Below, piece by piece: positions 1,111 to 47,923 of a stretch of 64,000 bases of DNA. Each line of letters opens with the position of its first letter. Position 1 is the first letter of the stretch. Made by a program: the position numbers and the translations under genes. Under the pieces are notes generated by a model. That model was not told where the DNA came from. It searched no databases and saw nothing but the letters and a program-made list of their open reading frames with translations. Location: positions 2,560,001 to 2,624,000 of the forward strand of contig OX638340.1 in the NCBI GenBank assembly GCA_951812955.1, in the 5' to 3' direction. The DNA is from an uncultured Gemmatimonadota bacterium. Its GTDB lineage: Bacteria; JAAXHH01.

Positions 1111-2055
1111 ATGGACAAGGAATCCGCTGAAACGAAACAGGTCGTCGTCATCGGCGGGGGGCCGGCGGGTTACACGGCGGCCCTGTATGCGGCCCGGGCG
1201 AACCTTTCCCCCGTCGTATTGACGGGCAGCACGGTCGGCGGACAGTTGTCGCTTACCAGCGAGATCGAGAACTTCCCGGGATTCCCCGAAAGCCTGGGAG
1301 GCATGGATCTCATGGACCGCATGAGGGAACAGGCCGAGCGTTTCGGCGCCGAGATGAAGTACGAGGAAGTCGTCTCGGTGGATTTTGAACCGGGAGCCCA
1401 CCGGATACGCACGGACCGGAGCGAATACACGGCGAAAACCGCGGTGATCAGTACCGGTTCGTCGCCCAGACTGCTCAACGTGCCTGGCGAGGATACCTTC
1501 TTCGGCCGGGGCGTTTCCACCTGCGCGACCTGCGACGGCGCCTTCTACCGGGACCGGAAGGTCGCCGTGGTGGGCGGAGGCGACAGCGCCATGGAGGAGG
1601 GACTCTTCCTGACGCGGTTCGCAAGCCAGGTCTGGATCATTCACCGCCGCAACGAACTGAGAGCGAGCCGGATCATGCAGGAACGGGCCCTGGAACATCC
1701 AAAGATAGCGTTCCAGTGGGGATCCGTGGTCGACGAGGTGCTGGGTGATGAAACCGCGGGCGTGACCGGGGTGCGCGTGCAGGAACTGGAAACGGACCGG
1801 GTACGGGTGCTGGACGCCGAGGGCCTCTTCATCGCTATCGGGCATACGCCCAATACCGGACTCTTCAGAGACAAGATCGACCTGGACGAACAGGGCTACA
1901 TCCTGACCGACAGGAGGCAGCGCACCAGCGTGCCCGGCGTGTTCGCGGGCGGGGACGTGCAGGACCACGTCTATCGCCAGGCGATTACGGCGGCGGGAAC
2001 GGGATGCGCCGCCGCCATGGAGGCGGAGAAGTATATCGCGGGGAACGGGGGCTAG
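1111..2055 (+). CDS. trxB: thioredoxin-disulfide reductase
   Basis: FAD-binding GGGPAGYTAALYAARA, redox-active CATCDGAFY, NADPH-binding VVGGGDSAMEEG; length 314 aa. Confidence 0.9.
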   Translation: MDKESAETKQVVVIGGGPAGYTAALYAARANLSPVVLTGSTVGGQLSLTSEIENFPGFPESLGGMDLMDRMREQAERFGAEMKYEEVVSVDFEPGAHRIRTDRSEYTAKTAVISTGSSPRLLNVPGEDTFFGRGVSTCATCDGAFYRDRKVAVVGGGDSAMEEGLFLTRFASQVWIIHRRNELRASRIMQERALEHPKIAFQWGSVVDEVLGDETAGVTGVRVQELETDRVRVLDAEGLFIAIGHTPNTGLFRDKIDLDEQGYILTDRRQRTSVPGVFAGGDVQDHVYRQAITAAGTGCAAAMEAEKYIAGNGG

Positions 2056-2060
2056 GCCGC

Positions 2061-2183
2061 CGGGTCAGGGCGTTCGATCAGGTCGTTCGGGTCAGGGCGT
2101 TCGATCAGGTCGTTCGGGTCAGGGCGTTCGATCAGGGCGTGCGGGCGTCGTTCAGGGCGTTCGTTCAGGCCGTTCGGGCGTCG
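2061..2183. repeat. 27-bp tandem repeat (gtcagggcgttcgatcaggtcgttcgg) x about 3 plus degenerate copies, between convergent trxB and cysE
   Basis: Direct reading. The units decay in identity toward the cysE stop codon; the last cysE codons lie in the degenerate part. Confidence 0.85.
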
Positions 2184-3085
2184 TGCTTTACCACGTCCAG
2201 CTTCGGGTTTCCGATGGTAACCTTGGAATGGGGCGGCACCGGTTCCGTCAGCCAGACGTTGGCACCGATCACGGAATCGTGTCCTATGGTCGTTCCGCCA
2301 CCCAGGATCGTCGCACCCGAATAAATGACCACGTCGTCTTCAATGGTGGGGTGGCGCTTGCCGCCCTTAACGAGACGTCCGCCCTCATCCTTCCTGAAAC
2401 TCAGCGCGCCCAGCGTTACGCCCTGGTATAACTTGACGTTGGCGCCGATCAGCGCGGTCTCCCCGATGACAACGCCCGTGCCGTGGTCGATGAAGAAGCG
2501 GGTGCCGATGGTCGCGCCGGGGTGGATGTCGATACCGGTGCGGCTGTGGGCGTGTTCGGACATGATCCGCGGGATGAGCGGCGTATTCCTCAGATAAAGT
2601 TCATGGGCGAGCCGGTATGTGGCGATGGCTGCCATGCACGGGTAGCTGAGTATGATCTCGTCATGACTTTTGGCCGCGGGATCCCCGTCGTAGGCCGCTT
2701 CCACGTCGCCCATGAGCAGCTTTCGGATCCCGGGAATCGTCTCCAGGAGTTCGAGGGTGATCCCGTCGGCGATTTCCTGGCAGGCCGCCGGATCCTCCTC
2801 CCGGCACGGGGCGTCGTGCATCAGGCTTCGGGCGATTTCCTCCCGCAGCCTGATATAGATGGCGTCCACCAGCCCGTCGACGAAAAAGGCCACGTTCTTC
2901 GTCATGAGCGGTTCGTTCCCGAAATACCCCGGGAAACAAAGGACCAGCAGGTCCCTCAGGATGCCGTAAATCCGTTCCCGCGAAGGCAGGTTATTTCCAT
3001 CTTTGCGGTTCAGGCCACCGACCGAGTCGTAGGATCGTACGATCTGGGATGCCAGCGCGCCGAGCTGGCTGCGCGTCTCCGACAT
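2165..3085 (-). CDS. cysE: serine O-acetyltransferase (start moved to internal MSETRSQ; track ORF extends to 3160)
   Basis: Left-handed beta-helix hexapeptide repeats (DIHPGATIGTRFFIDHGTGVVIGETALIGANVKLYQGVTLGA) and an N-terminal SATase helical domain. Confidence 0.8.
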   Translation of the reverse strand: MSETRSQLGALASQIVRSYDSVGGLNRKDGNNLPSRERIYGILRDLLVLCFPGYFGNEPLMTKNVAFFVDGLVDAIYIRLREEIARSLMHDAPCREEDPAACQEIADGITLELLETIPGIRKLLMGDVEAAYDGDPAAKSHDEIILSYPCMAAIATYRLAHELYLRNTPLIPRIMSEHAHSRTGIDIHPGATIGTRFFIDHGTGVVIGETALIGANVKLYQGVTLGALSFRKDEGGRLVKGGKRHPTIEDDVVIYSGATILGGGTTIGHDSVIGANVWLTEPVPPHSKVTIGNPKLDVVKHDARTA

Positions 3086-3405
3086 GGTGAGATTGCAGAT
3101 CGGCACCACCTTCTCACCCGAAGTCTCATCGCGCCTGGAACGTTTCATGATGCTCCGCATCGGTTTTCAGATACCGGTTTCCGCACAGGTCAGAATCGGT
3201 GCCGGGCTTCTCTTCCCGGCCCTTTCGCCGCTGTCTGAATTTCGAGGAACCATCGCGGTAAGTCAAGCGATTTCTTTTGTTAACGGCTGTGCCATGATCG
3301 TTCGGCAGACGCTACAAAGCAGTTGCCTGAGGAAGCGGTACGGCCTTATATTGCAGTAATTTCGCGTCGCGTTTCGATCCCCGGTACACCAGGCAGCGGT
3401 CCCCT

Positions 3406-5364
3406 ATGGATATCAAACGAACGCTCGTCGTTCTTTCCCTCTTTCCATGCCTGCTTGCAACCGGCTTGCCGGTCGCGGGCCAGTCTGCCGGCGGGTACAT
3501 GGCTATCACCGAGGTGCAACCGGGCATGCGCGGATACGGCCTCACAGTTTTTCAGGATGCCCGGATCGATACCTTCGAGATCGAAGTGCTGGGCGTCATG
3601 AAGAACATTTTCTACGCGAAACACGATATCATCATGGTTGGAGTTTCGGGTCCCTACGTCGACGATGCGGGTGTAATCGCGGGGATGAGCGGCAGCCCCG
3701 TGTACATAGACGGAAAGCTCGTCGGCGCGTTGGCGTACCGCTTCGGGACGTTTCCGATGAAACCCATCGGCGGCGTCACGCCAATCGGCCATATGCTGGC
3801 CATACGCGATGCCCTGGAGACCGAACCGGCGCGGGACCGCAGTGCGCCCGGAGGAAACCTGGGAGGGCAGGGCGAGTTCCGGGGTGAAACCGGACCGGGT
3901 GAACTGGGTGGAACGGGCGGACCGGACGGTCCGGACGAAGCATCCGCGGATCCGGTATTCCCCGGTTCGCTTTGGCCGGGTGAAGACGGCATCGAAACGG
4001 AGTACTCCGGGCAGCCGGGTATCCCTTCTGGTCCGTCCAACCTCAAACCCATCGCCGTGCCGATGGTGTTTTCGGGTTTCCATCCCATGACGGTCAGTCT
4101 GTTCGAAAACGACCTGCGCCGTCGCGGACTCGTACCCCTGGCCGGGGGCGCTTCCAGCGGGACGTCCGGCACGGTTCCAGCCGGCGACGACTCGGTTACG
4201 GAACAGGCCGGTCCGGCGTCCAGCGGTGGGAGATCCTCCCTGGAACCCGGCGCCGCCGTGAGCGCGCAGCTCATACGGGGCGATTACAATCTTTCGGGTA
4301 CCGGTACGGTCACCTGGCGCGATGAAGACGCCATACTTGCCTTCGGGCATCCCTTTCTGTGGACGGGCGCCCTGAACATACCGATGAACCGGGCCGATAT
4401 CATTACGGTCATTCCGGACCAGATCGGATCCACGAAAATCAGCAGCGTGGCGGATGAAGTCGGTTCGGTCCTGTGGGACCACACAAACGGGATTTACGGC
4501 CAACTTGGCGATACGGCGCGCATGATACCGGTGGAACTCTCCTACGACGATGCCACCGGCACGCCCCGTACCTACCTGTTCGACGTGATGATGGCGAACG
4601 GCTGGACGCCTCTGCTGGTAAACATGGCGGTGGCGAATACGATTATCGCGAACGGCAGGGCGGCCGGCGAGCGAACGATAACACTCGGCGGACGGATCGA
4701 GCTGCGGGGCCATCCGGATGTCGTCTTCGAAGACCAGTTTTCCGGACAGGGGTCCCTCTCGGCATTGGCCAGAGATGTGAACGGCGTGCTCGACTTCGTG
4801 CTCGACAACCGCTTCGTGACCCCGATGATCGAGTCACTGAGTATCGAGATACAATCGTCGAACGAGCGCAGGACGGCCGTCATCGAAGACGTCTGGTTCG
4901 GATCGGAAACCGTGAAGCCGGGCGACACGCTGGAGGTCAGGGTATTCCTTCGGCCCTACCGAGGCGACCGCGTGGTCAAGCGGCTCGACGTGACGATCCC
5001 CAAGACCATATCCAACGGACCGGTACAGGTACTTGTCGGTTCCTCCCAGGCCGTTCTCCGCCACGACCTGAATGCCGTTCCCCAGCGGTACAGGCCCACG
5101 GACGGTCCCCGGCTGATTGAACTGCTCAACAACCGCCGTACCGGAAACCGGGTATATCTGAAGATGTTCCAGGGCGGCGCGGGGGGCATGGTGAAGGGCA
5201 GGGAGATGCCCGGACTGCCTCCATCGGTCCTCGCCGTCATGAATTCAGAGCGGACGAAGGGCAGTTTCCTGCCGATCCGCGAGAAGGTGGTCGCCGAGGA
5301 AACGGTCCGAACGGACTATGTCATCGCCGGGCAGAACTGGAGCCGGCTGACCGCAAAGCGATAG
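3406..5364 (+). CDS. secreted SpoIVB-like peptidase S55 family serine protease with a Gly/Pro-rich internal linker
   Basis: Signal peptide MDIKRTLVVLSLFPCLLATGLPVAGQ. Ser-protease motif AGMSGSPVYIDGKLVG and His motif AFGHPFLWTG resemble SpoIVB/S55. Low-complexity GPG-rich segment in the middle. Confidence 0.55.
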   Translation: MDIKRTLVVLSLFPCLLATGLPVAGQSAGGYMAITEVQPGMRGYGLTVFQDARIDTFEIEVLGVMKNIFYAKHDIIMVGVSGPYVDDAGVIAGMSGSPVYIDGKLVGALAYRFGTFPMKPIGGVTPIGHMLAIRDALETEPARDRSAPGGNLGGQGEFRGETGPGELGGTGGPDGPDEASADPVFPGSLWPGEDGIETEYSGQPGIPSGPSNLKPIAVPMVFSGFHPMTVSLFENDLRRRGLVPLAGGASSGTSGTVPAGDDSVTEQAGPASSGGRSSLEPGAAVSAQLIRGDYNLSGTGTVTWRDEDAILAFGHPFLWTGALNIPMNRADIITVIPDQIGSTKISSVADEVGSVLWDHTNGIYGQLGDTARMIPVELSYDDATGTPRTYLFDVMMANGWTPLLVNMAVANTIIANGRAAGERTITLGGRIELRGHPDVVFEDQFSGQGSLSALARDVNGVLDFVLDNRFVTPMIESLSIEIQSSNERRTAVIEDVWFGSETVKPGDTLEVRVFLRPYRGDRVVKRLDVTIPKTISNGPVQVLVGSSQAVLRHDLNAVPQRYRPTDGPRLIELLNNRRTGNRVYLKMFQGGAGGMVKGREMPGLPPSVLAVMNSERTKGSFLPIREKVVAEETVRTDYVIAGQNWSRLTAKR

Positions 5365-5373
5365 GAGCGACTC

Positions 5374-7674
5374 TTGAACCAGGTCACGGGATGGCGCGTA
5401 CCACTCTTGGCTTCGGTCCTTCTGATGGCCGCGTTCGGCGCCCTCGCGTCGACGCCGGTAATCTGGAAACAGGCCGGACACGGGGACTTTCTCAGAGGAG
5501 AAACCCGCGGCGTTTCCATAACCGGAAAGGGCCGCCTGACCCTGTCACCGGTCCTGGATCCCGTTTTCGAGAGCGACGAACCGCTGATATGGAGTATCGC
5601 GACCGATTCCAGCGGTAATATCTACGCGGGTACGGGAAATGACGGCAGGCTGTACCGTGTGGATTCCTCGGGCCAGACCGAAGTGTTTTTCGACGCGGAA
5701 GAGCTTGAAATCCGCAGTGTCGCGATTGATGGCGACGACAGGATCTACGCAGCCACCTTCCCCGACGGCCGGATCTACCGGATCGACCCGGACGGGACCC
5801 ATACAGTGTTTTTCGATCCAGCGCGCGATGGCGGCTCGGACGACGGGAATGGCGGCTCGGACGACGGGAATGGCGGCTCGGACGACGGGAATGGCGGCTC
5901 GGACGACGGGACGGGCTACATCTGGTCGCTGGCGCTGGACGGGGAGGGCGGGCTTTACGCGGGAACGGGTGATCAGGGAAGGATATATCGTATCGACGAG
6001 CATGGCGACGCACACCTGCTGGCCGAGCTGGAGGAGGCCCATGTCATGGCCCTGGCCGTGGATGGATCGGGCCGACTGATCGCCGGCACCGAGCCGGGCG
6101 GAAGAGTCTACCGCATGGAATGGACCACGCCCGACGGCCCCCTTTCCCTTTCGGTCCTCCACGATTCTCCCTACGGCGAAATCAACGCCCTTCAGGTTGA
6201 CGCGGAGGGCGCCGTGTTCGCCTGCGCGCTGAGTGGACCGCGCCGGGGCGGCCGGGGCGGGGGAGCGATGTCTCCGCCATCCCGGAGCACTCCCGACGAG
6301 CCTGGCGGCGAATCCGCACGCAACACGGTCGAAGTGACGGCATCGGCGGATGGCGCGGACCGGCCGACAGTCCGCAGTTTCGCCGCGGGGGGCAGTGTGG
6401 TCTTACGGATAGATCCGGATGGACGGGTGGAAGAATGGTGGCGATCCCAGGCGGACGTATGCCTGTCTCTGGCGGTTCGAGGAGAAAAAGAACTGCTCAT
6501 TGGCACCGGGCAGCGCGGCCGGCTGTACAGCGTCCGGGAACGGGGCCGGGGCACGCTGCTGAACGAATTGCGGGATTCGCAGATCACGGCGCTGATGCCT
6601 GTCGCAACGGACGGGGTTTTGGTGGCGACGAGTAATCGCGGCAACCTGTACCGTCTGCTTTCCCGGCCCGTGCGCGAGGGCGAATACGAATCCGATGTCC
6701 GGGATACCCGGGGCATCGCGCGGTGGGGCCGTATACGATGGGAAAACGAGCAGCCCGCGGGGACGACGGTCCGCCTGTATGCGCGGTCGGGCAATACGGA
6801 TGCTCCCGACCAGACCTGGAGCGAATGGACCGGTCCCTACACCGACCCGGAAGGAGAAGCCCTGGCATGCCCGCCCGCCCGCTATCTGCAGTGGAAGGCG
6901 GTGCTGAACACGCGGAACGAGCAAACCCCCTCGGTCTCTTCCGTTTCGGCCTCGTACCTGACGCGAAACAATCCGCCCAGGGTGCACTCGGTCACGGTAT
7001 ACGAGCCGGGCGTCCAATTGCGGGACGCCGCGCCAGGTTCAGGCTTACAGACCGATCTTCCCCCGGGCATCGCAGCGCAGGTCGGTGGCCGTGGCAACGG
7101 CCGCGGCCAGAACGCATCGGCCGGCTCCCCCACCTACCGGAAGGGCATGCGGGCCATCGCGGTCCAGGCGAGCGATCCTGACGGGGACGGACTGTCCTTC
7201 GAAATCTATTTCCGGGGCGCGGCTGAAGAAACCTGGAAACTCCTGGAGTCGGAACGGCGCACCCCTTCCTATTCCTGGGATTCCGAGACTTTCCCGGATG
7301 GAGAATACGTCATACGCGTCGTGGTCAGCGACGCGTCGTCGAACCCGCCTGACCAGGCACTGGAGTCGGATCACCTCACCGAACCTTTTCTGGTGGACAA
7401 TACCGGTCCGCTGGTAACCCGGATCAACATATCAGACGGACTGTTGTCCTTTCTTGTCCAGGATAACGCCAGTCCCCTTTTTCGCGTGGAATACGCCATA
7501 GACGGGCGCGATTGGCGGGTGGTTCACCCCGTGGACGGCGTTACGGATTCGAAGACGGAGTCATTCGAGATCACCCTGGACGGACTGGAACCCGGCGAAC
7601 ACACCCTCGCCGTTCGCGCCAGGGACACATCAAATAACACGGGTACGGGGAAACGGGTCGTCAGGATCCCCTGA
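5374..7674 (+). CDS. secreted beta-propeller repeat protein with C-terminal Ig/FN3-like beta-sandwich region; contains in-frame GGSDDGN x4 repeat
   Basis: Signal peptide. Recurrent ~40-aa blade-like units (GNIYAGTGNDGRLYRVD, DRIYAATFPDGRIYRID, GGLYAGTGDQGRIYRID, GRLIAGTEPGGRVYRME). C-terminal beta-rich region. Immediately follows the S55 peptidase on the same strand. Confidence 0.5.
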   Translation: MNQVTGWRVPLLASVLLMAAFGALASTPVIWKQAGHGDFLRGETRGVSITGKGRLTLSPVLDPVFESDEPLIWSIATDSSGNIYAGTGNDGRLYRVDSSGQTEVFFDAEELEIRSVAIDGDDRIYAATFPDGRIYRIDPDGTHTVFFDPARDGGSDDGNGGSDDGNGGSDDGNGGSDDGTGYIWSLALDGEGGLYAGTGDQGRIYRIDEHGDAHLLAELEEAHVMALAVDGSGRLIAGTEPGGRVYRMEWTTPDGPLSLSVLHDSPYGEINALQVDAEGAVFACALSGPRRGGRGGGAMSPPSRSTPDEPGGESARNTVEVTASADGADRPTVRSFAAGGSVVLRIDPDGRVEEWWRSQADVCLSLAVRGEKELLIGTGQRGRLYSVRERGRGTLLNELRDSQITALMPVATDGVLVATSNRGNLYRLLSRPVREGEYESDVRDTRGIARWGRIRWENEQPAGTTVRLYARSGNTDAPDQTWSEWTGPYTDPEGEALACPPARYLQWKAVLNTRNEQTPSVSSVSASYLTRNNPPRVHSVTVYEPGVQLRDAAPGSGLQTDLPPGIAAQVGGRGNGRGQNASAGSPTYRKGMRAIAVQASDPDGDGLSFEIYFRGAAEETWKLLESERRTPSYSWDSETFPDGEYVIRVVVSDASSNPPDQALESDHLTEPFLVDNTGPLVTRINISDGLLSFLVQDNASPLFRVEYAIDGRDWRVVHPVDGVTDSKTESFEITLDGLEPGEHTLAVRARDTSNNTGTGKRVVRIP
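5830..5913 (+). repeat. perfect 21-bp tandem repeat x4 (ggcggctcggacgacgggaat), in-frame within propeller gene, encoding GGSDDGN x4
   Basis: Direct reading of the sequence; three identical units followed by one variant unit. Confidence 0.9.
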
Positions 7675-10709: not shown

Positions 10710-11921
10710 TTGCGAGCATCCGTGAATCTAGCCGCATACGATTTTAACCTGCCGGAAGACCTGATCGCCCAGCATCCGGCCGAACACCGCGACGCGTCCC
10801 GATTGATGGTGGTGCACAGGCGCGGCGGTATGATCGAACACCGAGCATTCCGGGACATTGTAGAATACCTGGCCCCGGCCGACGCGCTGGTGCTCAACCG
10901 GACGAAAGTGATGCCGGCGAGGCTGCTGGGGACGCGGCCGGAGACCGGCGGAAAGGTCGAAGTCGTGCTGGTCCGCCAGGTCCGCGAGTCCGCGCCCGCC
11001 CTCTGGGAAGCCCTGCTGAAGCCCGGCGCCCGGCTCGCGAGAGGGACGCGCTTGGATCTGGAGGGCGGCGTACTTACTGCCACGGTGGAGGACGACCCCG
11101 GTCCGGACATACGCCATGTTCGATTCGGCGGGAACGAGGACGTTACGCGGGTCATAGAGCAGGTTGGCCGCACGCCGCTGCCCCCCTACATACGCCGTTC
11201 GCCGGACGCGACCGACAGGGATCGGTACCAGACGGTCTACGCGGAGGAATACGGCGCCGTGGCCGCTCCCACGGCCGGGCTGCACTTCACGGCCCCCCTG
11301 CTGGACCGCATCCGGTCGCGGGGAACGGCCGTGGTGCCGATCCTGCTCCACGTCGGGCCGGGTACGTTCCAGCCGATCCGCTCTGCCGCCGTGGAAGACC
11401 ACGAAATGGACGCGGAATACTACCGTATGGAGGCGCACGAAGCGGAAGCGATCCTGAAAAAGCGTGGCGAGGGCCGCGTGGTCGCCGTGGGAACCACGGT
11501 CGTGCGCGCCCTGGAAACGATCGCGGCCGGGTCCTCCGCCGTCGACGCAGGATCCGGGCCCGATAGAGCATCCGCGGACGCAGGATCAGGGCCCGATAGA
11601 GCATCCGCGGCCGGTGGCGCGTCCGAAGGCGGAGGTGGGTTCGGCCCAGGCGGTCCACGCGATCCAGGCGGTCCAGGCGACCCAGGCGGACATGGACTCG
11701 TTCCGCGCCGGTACGAGGGGCGCACCCGGTGTTTCATCTATCCCCCCTACAATTTCCGGCTGGTCGACGCGCTGCTGACTAATTTCCATCTGCCGAAGTC
11801 GACGCTCCTCTTGCTGGTCAGCGCCTTCGCCGGAAGGGAACGGATCCTTTCCGCTTACGAGGAGGCGGTCAGGGAGAAATACCGGTTCTACAGCTATGGC
11901 GACGCCATGCTGATCGTATGA
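10710..11921 (+). CDS. queA: S-adenosylmethionine:tRNA ribosyltransferase-isomerase with a ~55-aa low-complexity insertion
   Basis: Conserved QueA blocks (DFNLPEDLIAQHPAEHRDASRLMVV, TAGLHFT, CFIYPPYNFRLVDALLTNFHLPKSTLLLLVSAF) interrupted by AVDAGSGPDRASADAGSGPDRASAAGGASEGGGGFGPGGPRDPGGPGDPGGHG. Confidence 0.85.
   Translation: MRASVNLAAYDFNLPEDLIAQHPAEHRDASRLMVVHRRGGMIEHRAFRDIVEYLAPADALVLNRTKVMPARLLGTRPETGGKVEVVLVRQVRESAPALWEALLKPGARLARGTRLDLEGGVLTATVEDDPGPDIRHVRFGGNEDVTRVIEQVGRTPLPPYIRRSPDATDRDRYQTVYAEEYGAVAAPTAGLHFTAPLLDRIRSRGTAVVPILLHVGPGTFQPIRSAAVEDHEMDAEYYRMEAHEAEAILKKRGEGRVVAVGTTVVRALETIAAGSSAVDAGSGPDRASADAGSGPDRASAAGGASEGGGGFGPGGPRDPGGPGDPGGHGLVPRRYEGRTRCFIYPPYNFRLVDALLTNFHLPKSTLLLLVSAFAGRERILSAYEEAVREKYRFYSYGDAMLIV
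11544..11609 (+). repeat. 33-bp tandem duplication (gacgcaggatccgggcccgatagagcatccgcg x2) inside queA, followed by a GC/Gly-Pro-rich tract to about 11700
   Basis: Direct reading; encodes DAGSGPDRASA x2. Confidence 0.9.
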
Positions 11922-12661
11922 GGAGGACAAAGGCCGTGAAATCCGCTATGGGCATCATCCCCGCGGCCGGTCTCGGCCAGCGTATGCGGTCGGATGAGGA
12001 GAAACCATACATCACGATCGGCGGAAGGTCGATCCTGGCCCACACCCTTTCGGCCTTCGAGGCGTGTCAGGCCGTGGAGGGTTACGTGCTGGTGGTAGAG
12101 CCGTCGCGCGTGCAATTCTGCAAGGCGCAGCTGACCGGGCCGTTCGGGCCGTCCGAGCCGTCCGGTCCGGGTGTTGCATATCCGAAGCTTGCCAAAGTGG
12201 TCGCCGGTGGAAGCACGCGCCAGGAGTCTGTATACCGCGGCCTGATGGCCCTGGACGACGAGACCGGGTACGTGCTGGTCCATGACGCGGCGCGCCCCTG
12301 CGTCGAGCCCGGCGCGCTCGAAGCTTCCGTCCTCGGTTGCGCCAGGCACGGCGCCGTGATCGCGGCCACCCCGTCGACGGATACGATGAAGATCATCCGC
12401 GACGGCGTGGTCGAGGCGACACCGGACCGATCGACGATCTGGCGGGCGCAGACGCCCCAGACGTTCGCGTACGGGATGCTCCGGACGGCACACGAACGGG
12501 CGCGGGAACAGGGATACGTCGGGACCGACGACGCCGAACTGGTGGAACGGGCCGGTTACGTGGTTCGGGTCCTGGAAGGCGCCCCAGACAACATCAAGGT
12601 GACCACGGCCGAGGACCTGGAAACCGCGGAGCGCATCTTGCGGCGGCAGGGGCGGATCTGA
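11918..12661 (+). CDS. ispD: 2-C-methyl-D-erythritol 4-phosphate cytidylyltransferase
   Basis: GIIPAAGLGQRM nucleotide-binding motif, VLVHDAARPCV; 247 aa; followed by ispF. Confidence 0.85.
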   Translation: MRRTKAVKSAMGIIPAAGLGQRMRSDEEKPYITIGGRSILAHTLSAFEACQAVEGYVLVVEPSRVQFCKAQLTGPFGPSEPSGPGVAYPKLAKVVAGGSTRQESVYRGLMALDDETGYVLVHDAARPCVEPGALEASVLGCARHGAVIAATPSTDTMKIIRDGVVEATPDRSTIWRAQTPQTFAYGMLRTAHERAREQGYVGTDDAELVERAGYVVRVLEGAPDNIKVTTAEDLETAERILRRQGRI

Positions 12662-12702
12662 CAGCGGATTAACCTGAGATTACATCATGAGGCTTTCTTG
12701 CC

Positions 12703-13194: not shown

Positions 13195-13249
13195 GTTACG
13201 TTCCCGCGCGCGCACCGATTCTGCTTATGCGCGTCGTAGTGGGGTATTT

Positions 13250-27286: not shown

Positions 27287-29746
27287 TCAGGCCCGGGCCT
27301 TCAGGCGTTTTCTGATGTGCATCGCACCCGCTGAAATCAACCCGGCGAGGATCAGTGCGCTGGCGATCCGGCTTATCAGGAGGCCCGTGGCGAAGGAAGC
27401 GGGGGCGAAAGTCATCACCACGTCATGACGGCCTTCGGGTACGGCCACGGAGCGAAGGACGTAGTTGGTCTTGTGTATTTCCGCCGGCTGGCCGTCAATC
27501 TCGGCGCTCCATCCTGCCGGATAATAGATCTCGCTGAGCACCAGCAAACAAGATGAGGCCGCATCCACTGCCATCTCGATACGGTGCGGTGAGTGCAGGG
27601 TGATCTCCACGGACGAGTCGCCCGCCGGACCGAGCCGTTCCTGGAGAGGTTCTTCCACGATTGCGTATTTGCCGGGATTGAACCCCGGGTCGCTCAGCGC
27701 TTCGAAGATGGCGTCCTTCCCGGCAATGACGCGCACACTGTCCACCAGGAAGGCCCGCGGCAGCGCGTCGTCGTTCCGATACAGGTATCCACCGTCGGTT
27801 TCGGCCACGGGTGCGAGCGCGGCTTCAGGGAGCGGCTGTCGAGACACCAGGTAACGGGTATTCAGCATGTTCAGAACCGGAAAGGAACTGAGTCCCACCT
27901 GGTCCATGAGTTCCTGGTAGATGCCCAACTTGGCGGCGTGGTAGCCGCCAATACTGGATATCCCGAAGTATCCGTATTCATTCGAAGAGAACTCGGAGAG
28001 CGGCAGGATGCGGTACAGGCTTGTGTCGTCTTCCAGGGCTTTCACAATTTCGTTGTCTCGGGCGGTGTAATAGGCTTCGATCCGCGCGGGATCATCTTGG
28101 GGGTTCACGATCCGCGAGGCCACGAGCGATAGATCGATGGAGACGAGTATGCATACGCCCGCGGCAAACAGTGACGGGCTCATCTTTCGGGTGGCGAAAA
28201 GCAGCGCCGCAGCCGCGCAGAGGAACAATGCCATGGTCCACAGATCGCCCATGAACAGGTCGAATCGCATGGCGTTGAGCCTGGCATGGTAGTCCACGTT
28301 GTCCAGGAGGGCCGCGCGCGAACCATGGGCCGCATCCGCCTGCGAATAGACGCCCGTCATGAAGGACTGGAAGGAGGACTCGAATACGGTCAGTACCAGG
28401 ACCAGCAGGAGGACTCCGCCGGCTACGCAGCACAGTTTTTTCGCGAAGCTCCCCAGGCTGTCCCGGCCGGCACGTATCCGTTCGATCACCGCGTGCACGC
28501 CGTATCCCGCCAGCAGGGCTGCCGCGAACTGCAGGATCACCAGGATCATGACCGGCGCGCGGAACTTGCCGAAGAAGGGGACGAAGTGGAGCATGACGTA
28601 GGACAGGGGAGGCAGGTGCCGTCCGAAGGAGACCAGAAGGGCCAGCACGGCCGCCAGGACGAGAAACAGGGTCATGCGCGAACTTCGCAGCAAGAAGCCC
28701 GCCAGGGCCAGGACAACGACGACGACGCCCAGGTAGTTCGGGAAATCCGTGAAGGGCATTTCTCCCCAGTAGAAGAGACCGCCGAACCCGGCGAAGGAAG
28801 GGATGATGAAGGTCAGTACTTCGATGGGAGGGAACGACCAGCTCGTGGCGAAGGGGACGTTGACGCCGCTACCGCCGACTGAGAGGCCCCGAGCGGAATA
28901 CTGCGCGTATTCCTGCATGGGAAAGACCAGCACCGCCGCGACGGCGACGGCCAGGACGATACCGCCCACAAAGAGACCGGATTTTCGCAGTATCTCGCGT
29001 GCAGGAGTCCTGTCCCTCCATTCATTGATTACGGCGTATGCGGCGTACAGGCCGATCAGCATGGCCGTGTAGAAGGCGATCTGGGGATGAAAGGAACACA
29101 ACTGCGAGCCGAACGCGCCTCCGAGCAATACCATGTCGAACACCCCGCCGCGATCAAATACGCGGTAGGCTGCCAGGAAGACGAGGGGGACATGCATGAA
29201 GCAGATGAACCGGTTCGCGTGTTCCGTGGCCATCATGTGGGTGGAAAACACGAAGGCCGCCGCCGCGACGAAAGACGCGGGCCTGGAGAGCGACAAGGTT
29301 CGCGCCAGAAGAAACATGGAAACCGCGCCGAGGAGCAGGTGGAAGAAGAAACGGCCGTGCAGCGCGCTGACGAGCCGGTCCGGCAGGACGGCATTGACCA
29401 GGGCTTCGTAGCTGTATTGTAGATGGTGGTACGTGCCGCTGGCCTGGAAGGGCATGCCGCCGAAGATGTGGGGGTACCAGAGGGGCGTTTCGCCGGATCC
29501 GCTTTTAAAGTCCTGCGCGAAGCGGTCGAAGGGAATGGCCTGGCCAATGAAATCGGGCCTGATGTCCATCTTCCCGTCGATGATATAGCCGCGGTACACG
29601 AATACGGCCAGCACCGCGATGATCAGGCAGAACAGGGCGTCCTGGACCAACGGATGCAGGCTTCGGTCCGCGCGCTCCCGACGGCTATCGTCCCGTCCGC
29701 GGATTCGGCGCTGTTCAGATCGTGGTGGGTTTCGCTGCTTCGCCAT
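27287..29746 (-). CDS. large polytopic membrane protein, YfhO-like GT-C family glycosyltransferase candidate
   Basis: 819 aa; more than 12 predicted TM helices in the first ~520 aa plus a ~300-aa C-terminal soluble domain; adjacent to a Dpm1-like GT2, as in CsbB/YfhO, ArnC/ArnT and GtrB/GtrC pairs. Confidence 0.5.
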   Translation of the reverse strand: MAKQRNPPRSEQRRIRGRDDSRRERADRSLHPLVQDALFCLIIAVLAVFVYRGYIIDGKMDIRPDFIGQAIPFDRFAQDFKSGSGETPLWYPHIFGGMPFQASGTYHHLQYSYEALVNAVLPDRLVSALHGRFFFHLLLGAVSMFLLARTLSLSRPASFVAAAAFVFSTHMMATEHANRFICFMHVPLVFLAAYRVFDRGGVFDMVLLGGAFGSQLCSFHPQIAFYTAMLIGLYAAYAVINEWRDRTPAREILRKSGLFVGGIVLAVAVAAVLVFPMQEYAQYSARGLSVGGSGVNVPFATSWSFPPIEVLTFIIPSFAGFGGLFYWGEMPFTDFPNYLGVVVVVLALAGFLLRSSRMTLFLVLAAVLALLVSFGRHLPPLSYVMLHFVPFFGKFRAPVMILVILQFAAALLAGYGVHAVIERIRAGRDSLGSFAKKLCCVAGGVLLLVLVLTVFESSFQSFMTGVYSQADAAHGSRAALLDNVDYHARLNAMRFDLFMGDLWTMALFLCAAAALLFATRKMSPSLFAAGVCILVSIDLSLVASRIVNPQDDPARIEAYYTARDNEIVKALEDDTSLYRILPLSEFSSNEYGYFGISSIGGYHAAKLGIYQELMDQVGLSSFPVLNMLNTRYLVSRQPLPEAALAPVAETDGGYLYRNDDALPRAFLVDSVRVIAGKDAIFEALSDPGFNPGKYAIVEEPLQERLGPAGDSSVEITLHSPHRIEMAVDAASSCLLVLSEIYYPAGWSAEIDGQPAEIHKTNYVLRSVAVPEGRHDVVMTFAPASFATGLLISRIASALILAGLISAGAMHIRKRLKARA

Positions 29747-29878
29747 GAATATCCTTTAGCGGACTGTTTCTGCGCTTCGCAATGAATACCCTATAACGGC
29801 CTGTTGCTGCGATATGAATGGCGGGAACATCCGATTAAATCAATCGATTAAAGCAAACGGTAAATTCTGCTGGTTAAA

Positions 29879-35998: not shown

Positions 35999-37474
35999 TC
36001 AGATGCCCCGATTTCCCGCTAACCATTTCATCAGGCCTTCAGCGGGCAATTCGGATTTCAGGATGGGCGTCCGTACGCCCTGGGTCCGCAGCAGGGCTTC
36101 GGCGCCCTGGTAACCGCTGCGCACCGCGCTTTCCATGGTAGCCGGCCAGCCCGTCTGTACCCAGTCGCCGGCGAGGAAGAAATTGGAAAGGGGACTGGAT
36201 GGACCGGGGCGCAGTGCGTCGCAACCGGGGTTGGGCGCGAACGTCGCCCTGCCCTCCTTGACGACGATGGCCTTGAGCAGTTCTGCCTGGCGTACGGCGG
36301 GCAGCAGGGACCTGAGATCTTCCATGGCCTGATCGATGATCATCTGTCGCGGCATTTTCATCCATTCATCGGAAGCACTGACTACGAGTCCGAGATAGGC
36401 TCCGTCGTTTTCCATGGCGTTGGTCCCGTCGTTTTCCACGGAGTTGGCTCCGGAGTGCCGATTGGACTGGTTGAATATCCACTGTATCCTCCTTCCGATC
36501 ACCGCGGCGTAGTCCAGTTCCGTCACGGGCCGGTCGAACCAGACGTGGACGGCCGTGATGGGAGAAACCGACAGCCCGGCAAGCATCGCGAAGTAGGGAT
36601 TCGAGGCTTGGCTTTGCGGCAGCAGCCGGCACAAAACATCGAATGGCAGGGCCGAAAGGTATGCCCCGGCCTCGACGGTCGAACCGTCCTGCAGCGAGAT
36701 GGAAGCCACCTTGCCGCCGTGGACGGCAATGCCGGTAACGCCCCGGTTGAACACGACGCGGCCGCCCCGCCGTTCGATGTAATCTATGCACGGCGCGTAC
36801 AGGTCTCCCAGCGGAACGGCGGGCAGCCCCACCTCGTACCCTCGGCGATTGATCAGAAAGGCCCGAACGGCCGTCCCGATTCCGTAATCGGCATCGATGT
36901 CGTCCAGTTCATCGTTGAGCGCACTGATTAGAAAGGGTTTCCAGAAGGCTTCGATGGCCCGCTTCGTTGCGCCGTGGGCTAGAAGCCAGGCAGACATGGA
37001 AACCGGAGACGGTGCTTCGGCGGCCTGATGTGTTTCCGGATAGCCGGTATTCCGTGATCTCATGACGTGGCGGACCATGCCGGCCACGGTGCGGACGATC
37101 GACAGCTTGTCCCGGATTCCCATCGTTTTAAGCCGGAGGAACGATGGAAGCAGGTGCAGGGGCGCGGGGAGACCCGAGGGCCCGATGACCGAAACGCGGT
37201 TGGACTCGTCGATGAATGGAATGGTCTCGTGAAAGTCGATATGGTTCGCGACGCCGAGACGGTCGTAGAAGTCCAGGAGGTTAACACAGCAGCCCAGGAG
37301 CACGTGCTGGCAGTTGTCCACCCGCTCGCCGCTTGACGGGTGTATGAAGGAGGTGGCGCGGCCGCCCAGGATTGGACGTCTTTCGTACAGTTCGACCTCG
37401 AAACCGGCATCGGCCAGCGCAACCGCGCCGGCCAGTCCAGCCAGCCCGCCACCGATTACGATTACCTGGCTCAT
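35999..37474 (-). CDS. hpnE: hydroxysqualene dehydroxylase (FAD-dependent amine-oxidase fold); start at MSQVIVIGGG, overlapping the hpnD stop by 4 nt
   Basis: FAD dinucleotide-binding VIVIGGGLAGLAGAVALADAGFEVELYERRPILGGRA; phytoene-desaturase-like length; directly downstream of two squalene/phytoene-synthase-family genes. Confidence 0.7.
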   Translation of the reverse strand: MSQVIVIGGGLAGLAGAVALADAGFEVELYERRPILGGRATSFIHPSSGERVDNCQHVLLGCCVNLLDFYDRLGVANHIDFHETIPFIDESNRVSVIGPSGLPAPLHLLPSFLRLKTMGIRDKLSIVRTVAGMVRHVMRSRNTGYPETHQAAEAPSPVSMSAWLLAHGATKRAIEAFWKPFLISALNDELDDIDADYGIGTAVRAFLINRRGYEVGLPAVPLGDLYAPCIDYIERRGGRVVFNRGVTGIAVHGGKVASISLQDGSTVEAGAYLSALPFDVLCRLLPQSQASNPYFAMLAGLSVSPITAVHVWFDRPVTELDYAAVIGRRIQWIFNQSNRHSGANSVENDGTNAMENDGAYLGLVVSASDEWMKMPRQMIIDQAMEDLRSLLPAVRQAELLKAIVVKEGRATFAPNPGCDALRPGPSSPLSNFFLAGDWVQTGWPATMESAVRSGYQGAEALLRTQGVRTPILKSELPAEGLMKWLAGNRGI

Positions 37475-38406
37475 ACGCGCTTTCGGATCAGCGCCCGGGC
37501 CGTGATGGAGATTTTCTTCCATGGGGACAGGCCGATGCGCTGGCTATACACGTCGTACTGGCGACGGGGGATTTCTTCAAGGCACGCCCGGTAGATGCCG
37601 ATCATGGCCGCCAGACACGCCCTGCTTGAGAACTGAACCTTCGGAAGGAGCGGCAGCGCTGCGTCGTAGTAGCTTCTGGCGCGTTCCACCTGGAATTCCA
37701 TCAGTCGCCGGAACGAATCGTCTAAAAGTCCGTTCCGCAGACGTTCCTCCGGGTACCCGAAGGCGTCAAGGTCCTCCTGCGGCAGGTAGATACGGCCCAT
37801 CCCCGCGTCCTCCCTCAGGTCGCGCAGTATATTTGTCAGCTGAAAGGCGATGCCACAGGACTCGGCGTGTTTTTTGGCTTCCGCGCCATTGAATCCGAAG
37901 ATGTGTATGCACACCAGTCCGACGGCGGAAGCCACGCGGTAGCAGTACTGGTAAAGTTCTTCGAAGGTGGCGTAACGCGTCACCGTAAGGTCCATTTGCG
38001 CGCCGTCGATAATGGCGTCGAAGTACGCTCTCGGGATGTCGTATCTCCCCACCGTGTCCCTGAATGCCGGCAACAGCCCGCGGACGTCGGGCGGTGTTTC
38101 GCCATAGGCGTCGGCCGGTGGTCCGTCATATGCGTCGGGCGGTGGTCCGTCATAGGCGCGGTCCAGGGACTCGCGGCAGGCGTTCAACCGGTTTTCCTTG
38201 TCCGCCTCCCCGGCCTCCTCGTCGACGATGTCGTCGCAGTAGCGCATGAAGGCGTACACGGCGCACATGGCCCGTCGCCGTTCAGCCGGCAGGACGATAA
38301 AGGAATAGTAGAAGTTCTTAGCCCTCGATTTCGCGATTTCGCGGCAGAAATCATAGGAGCGCTTCAACGATTCCGGATCGGCAGATTGTTTTTTCACAGG
38401 GTTCAT
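37471..38406 (-). CDS. hpnD: presqualene diphosphate synthase (squalene/phytoene synthase family) with an in-frame proline-rich insertion
   Basis: Trans-isoprenyl diphosphate synthase head-to-head motifs (YSFIVLPAERRRAMCAVYAFMRYCDDIVDE, second Asp-rich motif). Insertion AYDGPPPDAYDGPPADAYGETPPDV. Confidence 0.75.
   Translation of the reverse strand: MNPVKKQSADPESLKRSYDFCREIAKSRAKNFYYSFIVLPAERRRAMCAVYAFMRYCDDIVDEEAGEADKENRLNACRESLDRAYDGPPPDAYDGPPADAYGETPPDVRGLLPAFRDTVGRYDIPRAYFDAIIDGAQMDLTVTRYATFEELYQYCYRVASAVGLVCIHIFGFNGAEAKKHAESCGIAFQLTNILRDLREDAGMGRIYLPQEDLDAFGYPEERLRNGLLDDSFRRLMEFQVERARSYYDAALPLLPKVQFSSRACLAAMIGIYRACLEEIPRRQYDVYSQRIGLSPWKKISITARALIRKRV
38086..38157. repeat. 24-nt tandem repeat x3 inside hpnD (gtcggccggtggtccgtcatatgc and variants) encoding a DAYDGPP(P/A) repeat on the minus strand
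   Basis: Direct reading. Confidence 0.85.
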
Positions 38407-38475
38407 GACAACGGCGTTCCATCGTTACGTACAACGAGCACGGTTCGACGAGTACGGTTCGACGCGCACGACCCA

Positions 38476-46634: not shown

Positions 46635-46691
46635 GTCGGCCATTCGTCGGGCAGTCGGCCATTCGTTAGGCAGTCGGCCATTGGTCGGGCA
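46635..46691. repeat. 19-nt tandem repeat x3 (gtcggccattcgtcgggca) between queG and mltD, adjacent to an AT-only palindrome ggtttttaaaaaacc at 46608-46622
   Basis: Direct reading. Confidence 0.85.
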
Positions 46692-46737: not shown

Positions 46738-47901
46738 TCACGACGCTTCGCATTCCGTGAGCGCCTGGTCTATTTCCTTGATTACCCACTGATCTACTTC
46801 GGATTTCTTCGCCTGCTCCAGTACCGCGAGCGCCCGGCCGCCGCCGACGTTCCCCAGCGCCCAGGCCGCATGCCCCCGGACCAGCGGCTCGTCGTCGACA
46901 AGCGAATCGGCGAGCGCGGGTATCGCCTCGGGGTCCTTCGTGTTGCCCAGGGCAACCGCGGCGTTCCGCAGCAGGCCCCGCCGCTTGGTCCGTTTTACGG
47001 GACTGCCCCGGAATCGCGTCCTGAATTCCTCCGGCGTCAACCCCAGCATTTCGATCAGGCCCGGCGCTTCGTTCCACGGACGGGAAACGAACGCCGAATG
47101 GCCGGTTTCCGGTGCGCGGCGGTTCCAGGGACAGACATCCTGGCAGTCGTCGCACCCGAACACGCGGTCTCCCATCGCCGCGCGGTACTCCAGGGGGATG
47201 GCGCCTTTCAGTTCGATGGTGTGGTAGGAAATGCAGCGACGCGAATCGATCACGTAGGGCTCGACGATGGCTTCCGTGGGACAGGCCTCGATGCACCTCG
47301 TGCACGTGCCGCAGTGGTCGGCGGCAGGCCGGTCCCCGTCCAGGTCGATGTCCAGGAGAATCTCCCCGATCAACAGCCACGAACCCACGCGCTTGTGTAT
47401 GAGATTGGTGTGCTTCCCGAACCACCCCAGGCCGGCGCGGACGGCGAACTCACGTTCCAGCACGGGCCCCGTGTCCACGTACACCCTGCCCTCCACGGGA
47501 CGTCCGGCCCTTTCCCGGATGAATCCGAGCAGTTCCTGCAGCTTCTCCTTCATTACGTCATGATAGTCGTCGCCCCGGGCGTACCGGGCGATCTTTCCGC
47601 GGTACGTGTCTCCAGGCGTTCCTCGTTGCGTGTCTCCAGGCACGCCGCTGGGGACGGGGTCCGGGTCCGGACACCGGTAGTTCATCGCGACTACGACGAG
47701 GGACCGCGCGTTCGGCAGGATCTGTCCCGGGTCCTGCCGTTTCTCGATCTGCCGGCCCAGGTAGGCCATCTCGCCGGCCATGCCCTGCTCGATCCATTTG
47801 GCGTAATATTCACCGTGACGAGGTGGCTCGGCAGTGGTTACGCCGGATAGATCGAAACCGAGATACGCGGCGTGCGCCTTGATTTCTTCGGTAAGAGACA
47901 C
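46738..47901 (-). CDS. queG: epoxyqueuosine reductase
   Basis: 4Fe-4S ferredoxin motif CGTCTRCIEACPTEAI, cobalamin-binding core, C-terminal HEAT/PBS-lyase repeats (DEPLVRGHAAWALGNVGG); 387 aa. Confidence 0.85.
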   Translation of the reverse strand: MSLTEEIKAHAAYLGFDLSGVTTAEPPRHGEYYAKWIEQGMAGEMAYLGRQIEKRQDPGQILPNARSLVVVAMNYRCPDPDPVPSGVPGDTQRGTPGDTYRGKIARYARGDDYHDVMKEKLQELLGFIRERAGRPVEGRVYVDTGPVLEREFAVRAGLGWFGKHTNLIHKRVGSWLLIGEILLDIDLDGDRPAADHCGTCTRCIEACPTEAIVEPYVIDSRRCISYHTIELKGAIPLEYRAAMGDRVFGCDDCQDVCPWNRRAPETGHSAFVSRPWNEAPGLIEMLGLTPEEFRTRFRGSPVKRTKRRGLLRNAAVALGNTKDPEAIPALADSLVDDEPLVRGHAAWALGNVGGGRALAVLEQAKKSEVDQWVIKEIDQALTECEAS

Positions 47902-47923
47902 GGGTATCCACTACGCGGCGAAG

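Follow-up and report, generated by a model that had tools for sequence, protein, structure and literature searches.

The window analysed here is a 64,000-nucleotide (nt) stretch of contig OX638340.1 (GenBank assembly GCA_951812955.1, positions 2,560,001 to 2,624,000 of the forward strand) from an uncultured Gemmatimonadota bacterium, and the subject of this report is its queA gene, which carries a low-complexity loop built of tandem repeats. The coding sequence (CDS) occupies 10710..11921 on the plus strand, starts with TTG at 10710, and encodes a tRNA preQ1(34) S-adenosylmethionine ribosyltransferase-isomerase of 403 amino acids (aa). A database copy (P0001) is 100% identical to the window protein and has 399 aa, its N-terminus being four residues shorter; judging from the two lengths, its start would be the GTG at 10722. 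Window QueA matches the Pfam family PF02547 (Queuosine_synth; E = 8e-125, 416.7 bits against a cutoff of 25, profile positions 2-322 of 322), the NCBIfam equivalog NF001140 (429.3 bits, cutoff 324) and TIGR00113 (366.6 bits, cutoff 267), as well as the PDB structures 1vky, 1yy3 and 1wdi (E = 1e-89 to 5e-96). The Pfam scan of the protein reported no family besides Queuosine_synth. Regarding conserved positions, an alignment of 60 QueA sequences, the window protein included, contains 75 invariant columns; all are kept in window QueA, as are the family residues TNFHLP, GDAM and PTAGLHF, among others. The ratio of nonsynonymous to synonymous substitution rates (dN/dS) of the queA core is 0.11-0.36 between the window and six close relatives; L002 and L087 were left out of this comparison because an unaligned 9-nt offset in the fixed-window extraction pushed their values artificially to about 1. 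On these ratios the core is under purifying selection. The same window also contains queG, another gene of the queuosine pathway. Purifying selection on the core and the presence of queG lend indirect support to an intact and functional QueA, which would convert preQ1-tRNA to epoxyqueuosine-tRNA with S-adenosylmethionine (SAM). Shadow open reading frames (ORFs) across the repeat, on the opposite strand or in other frames, lack the pattern of G+C content at third codon positions (GC3) seen in the queA frame and were dropped.

The repetitive part of the gene begins with two head-to-tail copies of a 33-base-pair (bp) unit encoding DAGSGPDRASA, at 11544..11576 and 11577..11609 of the plus strand, for which Tandem Repeats Finder (TRF) reports period 33, 2.0 copies and 97% matches over 11544-11610. 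These are followed on the same strand by a Gly-rich spacer (AGGASEGGGGF, 11610..11641), which a DNA alignment of ten alleles shows to be common to close relatives and fast-evolving, and then by a 9-bp in-frame array at 11642..11689, with about five CCAGGCGGT-like copies encoding Pro-Gly-Gly/Asp. TRF assigns the latter both period 9 (5.3 copies) and period 18 (repeat family D1). The 9-bp unit has four matches against 0.18 expected, and the 27-nt core of the long unit occurs twice in the window and never in 100 shuffles; no further copy of the 33-bp unit was found elsewhere in the 64 kb. An earlier model-made reading of this DNA, based on the letters alone (the sequence-only reading), had called the 33-bp tandem duplication exact. 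The duplication stands and its exactness does not: the copies agree at 32 of 33 positions and differ by one synonymous base (TCC at 11553-11555, TCA at 11586-11588, both Ser). The peptide was written out correctly in that reading, the translation giving ...AVDAGSGPDRASADAGSGPDRASAAGGASEGGGGFGPGGPRDPGGPGDPGGHG... for the loop. Across the window and nine relatives the periods of the loop repeats are 33, 36, 9 and 18, and the ORF is intact in all of them. The locus thus has the features of a coding variable-number tandem repeat (VNTR) or minisatellite, namely head-to-tail units, lengths that are multiples of 3, and a copy number that varies among close relatives. A DNA hairpin was considered as a promoter of slippage and rejected, as the two-unit segment folds no better than its shuffles (z = -0.22).

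At the protein level, the insertion site is the helix-to-strand connection in the alpha/beta domain of QueA. The QueA fold consists of an alpha/beta, TIM-like domain with an inserted beta-barrel (PMC1282579). The matches to solved structures split in two at this point, with query residues 7-272 aligned to residues 15-271 of the Thermotoga maritima protein and residues 333-402 to its residues 277-346, so that about 55-60 residues of window QueA stand in place of the 5-7 found in solved QueA structures. Comparison with such structures was the check proposed in the sequence-only reading, and the T. maritima alignment does break at the loop. An AlphaFold2 (AF2) model of window QueA, built on the 60-sequence alignment, has a predicted template modelling score (pTM) of 0.81, and its core, taken in blocks of ten residues, mostly has values of 85-97 in the predicted local distance difference test (pLDDT). 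Searched against the PDB with Foldseek, the model gives 1vky, 1yy3 and 1wdi as the only significant matches (E = 1e-27 to 1e-30). Residues 276-327 (52 aa, encoded by 11535..11690 on the plus strand) are the sole segment with pLDDT below 50 (range 23-48) and are assigned as coil by DSSP; they replace the short alpha-to-beta connection and comprise 18 Gly, 9 Ala, 7 Pro, 6 Ser, 6 Asp and 3 Arg, with others, among the 52. This segment is therefore predicted to be an intrinsically disordered low-complexity loop, and its placement at the surface would follow from the predicted disorder. It is bounded by the helix end ...ALETIA and the strand ...YEGRTRCFIYP. The N-terminal anchor is a conserved helix in the AF2 secondary structure, residues 262-274 (GTTVVRALETIA; 11493..11531, plus strand), with the invariant residues T262, V265, R266, L268 and E269. 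The C-terminal anchor, supported by invariant columns and the model alike, is a conserved strand, residues 335-339 (YEGRT...; 11712..11726, plus strand), with invariant G337 and T339, which runs into FIYPP...TNFHLP. A collagen-like (G-X-Y)n triple-helix repeat was considered for the loop and rejected; it contains only about five P-G-G/D triplets, and the Pfam scan reports no collagen family.

In order to place the loop among other QueA proteins, homologues were searched in a collection of 5.8 billion protein sequences, and the comparisons drew on the 120 homologues listed and on 88 loci. Among the homologues listed, the closest proteins belong to a clade of uncultured bacteria labelled Gemmatimonadota/Gemmatimonadetes or Candidatus Latescibacterota, and record names such as APA_bin_41, IRC1_bin_16 and Plut_88884 suggest that the clade is associated with marine invertebrates (sponge or coral). 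The QueA proteins of the clade are 346-418 aa long. From the E[T/S] anchor to TNFH the distance is 28-36 aa in 61 QueA proteins from other phyla, including one from a Gemmatimonadaceae metagenome-assembled genome, versus 86 aa in the window; loop length is therefore tightly constrained elsewhere and expanded only in this clade. Similarly, the stretch from the ETIA to the FIYP anchor measures 13-23 aa in outgroups, 21 aa in the basal clade members of 346 aa, and 24-81 aa in the remaining clade. The window loop has 50 residues more than P0074, one of the basal 346-aa members, and P0072, P0074 and P0076 have no extra loop residues at all. This agrees with the sequence-only reading, which had described a low-complexity insertion between conserved blocks that is not a normal part of QueA. 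Where the loop has grown within the clade, it has gained 3-60 residues of unrelated sequence in different subclades; the inserts are non-homologous between subclades, yet always rich in Gly, Ser, Ala, Pro, Asp and Glu. A sub-block G-A-G-E-x-A-E-x-V/L ahead of LEPRRYEG is common to many clade members. The same comparison brought out a further hotspot of expansion in QueA, situated in a barrel-domain beta-hairpin after residue ~91 (about 10980-10990 in the window), where P0032, P0069, P0061, P0071 and others carry up to 42 residues rich in Pro, Ala, Arg, Glu, Thr and Ser, encoded by DNA repeats of 18-36 bp. At that site the window has only three extra residues (RES), that is, no comparable expansion.

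Over short evolutionary distances, the loop could be followed in the queA DNA of nine relatives; core identities, among these relatives and with the window, are 95.4-99.9%. There are at least seven loop length alleles among these nine relatives, which bears out the length polymorphism between strains for which the sequence-only reading had proposed to look. In the alignment of the ten alleles the gaps are whole repeat units, and the lengths of the variable part are 120, 120, 126, 156, 159, 171, 183, 183 and 201 nt. The long unit (33 or 36 bp) is present once in L082, L083 and L085, twice in the window, L084, L001, L002 and L087, and three times in L081, and the copy number of the 9-bp unit ranges from 2 to 7 among the close relatives. 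The nearest relative, L082/L088 (core 99.0% identical), has one long unit and two 9-bp units fewer than the window (33 + 18 bp missing), the absent long unit corresponding to copy 2 of the window. L085, the next relative, likewise has one long unit. Because L082/L088 and L085 each carry a single long unit, the 33-bp duplication of the window is most likely recent and postdates the split from both. The long-unit period is 33 bp in the window versus 36 bp in L001, L084 and L081, and copies within one genome have lineage-specific substitutions in common (AAG in both copies of L084, GGGCCT in copies 2 and 3 of L081); owing to these two observations, duplication of the long unit seems to have occurred several times independently. 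Between the window and L088, 5 of 107 aligned nt differ in the loop (~4.7%) versus about 1% in the core. The loop thus gathers substitutions approximately five times faster than the core, as expected under relaxed constraint. Regarding the reliability of the alleles, that of P0009 is the same in a short-read Logan assembly and in a long-read circular contig, and those of P0002 and P0008 were found on 4 and 7 contigs, respectively. The gene order ruvA-ruvB-queA-ispD-ispF-parA is kept in most of the close relatives examined, L085 being the exception. In L085, a gene of 378 aa (2739-3875) with a weak SIR2_2 match lies directly downstream of queA in place of ispD, a local break of synteny; this SIR2_2-type gene is possibly a defence-type gene.

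The alignment with the nearest relative also covers the surroundings of queA. Over 21.1 kb aligned to L088 at 97.8% identity there are eight gaps, two of them of 1 bp. The other six gaps represent five events, each a tandem-repeat unit held by the window and missing in L088: 27 bp in the intergenic array at 2061-2184, 21 bp in a beta-propeller-like gene, 33 bp and 18 bp in queA, and 9 bp in ispD. All five indels longer than 1 bp are thus repeat-unit changes, and four of the five are in genes. The two 1-bp indels, at 13224 (near the ispF/parA junction) and 14903 (after parB), are the only non-repeat indels in the 21 kb. In ispD (open frame 11918/11936-12661, plus strand), TRF finds a 9-bp in-frame array of 3.9 copies (GPFGPSEPSGPG) at 12135..12169 on the plus strand, where the nearest relative has the 9-bp gap. 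The loop encoded there is polymorphic as well: most of the clade has 25 aa, L003 has 47 aa, and the species-level relatives have 28, 31 or 34 aa, compared with 34 aa in the window. A perfect array of 21 bp x 4.0 (DGGSDDGN) occupies 5828..5911 on the plus strand, within the beta-propeller-like gene, whose open frame is 5365-7671 and which matches Reg_prop, SGL and SSL_N weakly; L088 has three copies of the unit. This indel record, together with the ispD loop, fits the proposal of the sequence-only reading that repeats are actively turning over in the coding regions of this genome.

Tandem arrays are frequent throughout the window, where TRF reports 16 with a score of at least 50, versus a mean of 0.57 (maximum 2) in 30 second-order Markov simulations; 11 of the 16 have a period divisible by 3. 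On the minus strand, a squalene/phytoene-synthase family gene (SQS_PSY, hpnD/hpnC-like, open frame 37474-38424) has an in-frame array of 24 bp x 3.1 (AYDGPPxD) at 38085..38158. The sequence-only reading had pointed to in-frame repeats in this hpnD-like gene and in the propeller gene, and TRF recovers both. The adjoining flavin amine-oxidase gene (36002-37543) has an in-frame 24-bp array of 1.9 copies at 36402-36447, also on the minus strand. In queG (epoxyqueuosine reductase, open frame 46741-47910), an in-frame array of 24 bp x 2.0 (VPGDTQRG/TPGDTYRG) lies at 47595..47641 on the minus strand; by position it falls in the QueG_DUF1730 stretch, which has 90 residues for a profile of 77 positions. 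The compound 27/33/13-bp array at 2061-2184 lies between a trxB-like gene (1111-2055, plus strand) and a hexapeptide/serine-acetyltransferase-like gene (2165-3160, minus strand). Coding status was rejected for this array because the two genes are convergent and the array lies between them. In two more arrays, 29729-29811 (37 bp x 2.2) and 46635-46691 (19 bp x 3.0), the period is not divisible by 3, and no open frame of at least 60 codons spans them; they may be regulatory, REP-like or plain duplications.

Longer duplications are found at gene boundaries in some relatives. L081 (2728-2886) and L083 (2647-2805) carry a 76-bp x 2.1 duplication over the queA stop and the first ~25 codons of ispD, a segment that is single-copy in the window (11918-12001). 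As a consequence, a dead copy of the ispD start remains out of frame, and queA and ispD are separated by ~90 nt. At the other end of ispD, the last ~12 codons and the TGA stop are repeated in tandem 3-4 times, beyond the end of the gene, with a period of 37-38 bp in L001 (3429-3585), L081 (3508-3623) and L084 (3405-3526). This segment too is single-copy in the window (12626-12668), and outside the translated part the period is not tied to multiples of 3.

Taken together, these data make it very probable that the QueA insert represents a coding VNTR that keeps the reading frame and consists of a 33/36-bp minisatellite with a 9-bp array behind it; it would occupy a disordered loop in which a functional enzyme tolerates such changes, and would have been generated by slippage or unequal recombination. 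Units would be gained and lost by replication slippage or by unequal recombination between neighbouring copies, a mechanism suggested by the unit-sized gaps and by the lineage-specific substitutions that copies share. Selection would remove only those changes that break the frame or introduce order-disrupting residues, and the hydrophilic product, rich in Gly, Pro, Ser, Ala and Asp, would stay disordered and disturb neither the QueA fold nor catalysis. The idea that the insertion is tolerated as a loop, already put forward in the sequence-only reading, is in line with the low pLDDT being confined to residues 276-327 in the model, with the 75 invariant columns and with the dN/dS of the core. 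The insert itself would have no required function, and the loop would be one outcome of a general tendency of the lineage to duplicate short segments (9-76 bp) in tandem at a high rate. That five of five indels are repeat-unit changes, that the ispD loop is polymorphic, and that out-of-frame boundary duplications occur in relatives argue for a mutational process rather than an adaptation specific to queA. The array density, 3.5 per 10 kb in clade loci versus 0.77 in equivalent loci of other bacteria, and the 11 of 16 window arrays with a period divisible by 3 point the same way. The 33-bp duplication would then be the most recent event in a loop whose expansion and turnover extend over the whole clade.

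Several observations weigh against this interpretation. The disorder and surface exposure of the loop are deduced from AF2 confidence only, and invariant E269, G337 and T339 lie within a few residues of it, so the loop is not obviously far from functional residues. The window allele is the longer one in all five unit differences from L088, which purely neutral gain and loss would not predict (although n = 5). The comparison of array density mixes GC contents of 64% (clade) and 46% (others). A single contig is on record with the exact allele of the window. Finally, the expansion persists deep in the clade, where relatives down to ~70% protein identity keep 5-40 extra residues rich in Gly, Ser, Ala, Pro, Asp and Glu, a persistence that might be explained instead by selection favouring a flexible linker.

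The last point leads to the view that selection maintains the loop as a functional module, a flexible acidic/neutral disordered linker or "bristle" that aids QueA and whose length is tuned by repeat turnover. It might, for instance, act as a hinge that lets tRNA in, keep the enzyme soluble in the symbiont cytoplasm or mediate a protein contact peculiar to the lineage. Expansion of this one site throughout most of a deep clade, a steady composition devoid of hydrophobic residues, and the sub-block before LEPRRYEG would all suit such a role, as would the adjoining invariant residues and the uniformly longer window alleles. The sequence of the loop is, however, unconserved between subclades, with 0-60 extra residues and none in the three clade members named above; its nucleotide divergence is about fivefold that of the core, most differences altering the residue; and like expansions occur in unrelated genes (ispD, queG, hpnD-like, amine oxidase) and in intergenic DNA. 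We therefore consider selection for the loop improbable, though it is the most serious of the rival explanations. An artefact of assembly or consensus, with a single copy in the true genome, would account for the single record of the window allele and for the single-copy state of the nearest relative, and tandem repeats are a recognised cause of assembly error. The two copies nevertheless differ at a synonymous base, which speaks against simple collapse or stutter, and the array is just 66 bp, shorter than any read, and preserves the reading frame. Two- and three-copy alleles are also present in independent assemblies of relatives, the P0009 allele agrees between short-read and long-read data, and the source contig, of 3.81 Mb, is a near-complete chromosome, all of which makes an artefact very improbable.

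A large insertion in a usually compact enzyme, in a lineage that appears to be host-associated from the record names of its relatives, might also come from foreign or mobile DNA (a miniature inverted-repeat transposable element, an intein remnant or a captured domain), or indicate that queA is decaying to a pseudogene. Against this, the unit has no other copy in the 64 kb, forms no special DNA hairpin and adds no Pfam domain, while the ORF is intact, every invariant residue is kept, dN/dS is well under 1, and the surrounding gene order is maintained in most close relatives examined (not in L085); such an origin is the least probable of those weighed here. A phase-variable contingency locus was rejected as well, since all alleles are in frame and all units are multiples of 3.

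The coding VNTR in a tolerant loop thus remains our preferred explanation; the QueA loop is real and would be a mechanistically ordinary product of slippage, in a lineage that seems to form such repeats unusually readily. A broader version, to which we give limited credence, holds that across the genomes of this lineage indels are dominated by tandem duplications of 9-76 bp, that core enzymes (QueA, IspD, QueG, an HpnD-like protein and others) keep gaining and losing disordered Gly/Pro-rich loops, and that some of these loops, for example that of QueA, may have taken on a role as functional linkers. Over 21 kb, all indels longer than 1 bp are repeat units, a spectrum that hints at a tandem-duplication bias at the level of the lineage. 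If such a regime is real, it would be a bacterial, high-GC counterpart of the low-complexity inserts of Plasmodium. In practical terms, the loops of queA and ispD are ready strain-typing markers for an uncultured symbiont clade, and two sites of QueA are seen to accept foreign residues in nature, the alpha-to-beta connection (up to 60) and the hairpin after residue ~91 (up to 42, in relatives), which is useful for engineering, tagging and the reading of family alignments. For annotation, loop alleles should not be written off as assembly errors or allowed to split orthologue clusters; at present, queA genes that are 96-99% identical land in separate 90% protein clusters, largely through the loop.

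Coding VNTR or minisatellite loci used for typing, such as the mycobacterial interspersed repetitive unit (MIRU-VNTR) type, consist of head-to-tail units of tens of bp whose copy number varies between near-identical strains. The QueA repeats are likewise head-to-tail and variable in copy number, and in-frame units are tolerated within the gene; unlike those loci, the repeat lies in the catalytic domain of a cytoplasmic tRNA-modification enzyme rather than in an intergenic region or a surface protein, and is known only from uncultured metagenome-assembled genomes. In Plasmodium falciparum, housekeeping enzymes contain disordered, compositionally biased low-complexity inserts of variable length between conserved blocks, genome-wide and polymorphic between isolates. 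The QueA loop shares with them its predicted disorder, biased composition, variable length and position between conserved blocks of a canonical enzyme, but it belongs to a bacterium with 62% GC, its inserts are rich in Gly, Pro and Ala instead of AT-rich and Asn/Lys-rich, and its scale has been seen in one 64-kb window. With simple-sequence contingency loci of phase variation it has repeat-mediated hypermutability of a gene in common; in contrast, its units are multiples of 3, so that the frame never shifts and there is no ON/OFF switching, and the product is cytoplasmic and not a surface antigen. Compared with canonical QueA (T. maritima 1VKY, Bacillus subtilis 1YY3, Thermus thermophilus 1WDI), the window protein has the same two-domain architecture and family-invariant residues and matches the family hidden Markov models (HMMs), and differs in having one alpha-to-beta connection lengthened by about 50 residues; in other clade members the hairpin after residue ~91 is expanded too.

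The nearest general framework is the account of low-complexity regions in prokaryotic proteins by Persi, Wolf, Karamycheva, Makarova and Koonin (2023, PMC10120016), which describes their origin by proliferation of short repeats, transiently also in proteins of ancestral functions. The abstract and outline of that work mention neither QueA nor this lineage. The finding fits its picture of low complexity and leaves the current view of the mechanism unchanged, the mechanism being of an already known kind. Like the regions described there, the QueA insert expands and contracts in frame by short repeats, a behaviour ascribed to slippage, and is compositionally biased, probably disordered and fast-evolving, in an ancestral housekeeping function. 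Unlike them, it has units that exceed those of classic microsatellites in length (33/36 bp besides 9 bp), and the expansion-prone state lasts at one loop clade-wide instead of fading quickly.

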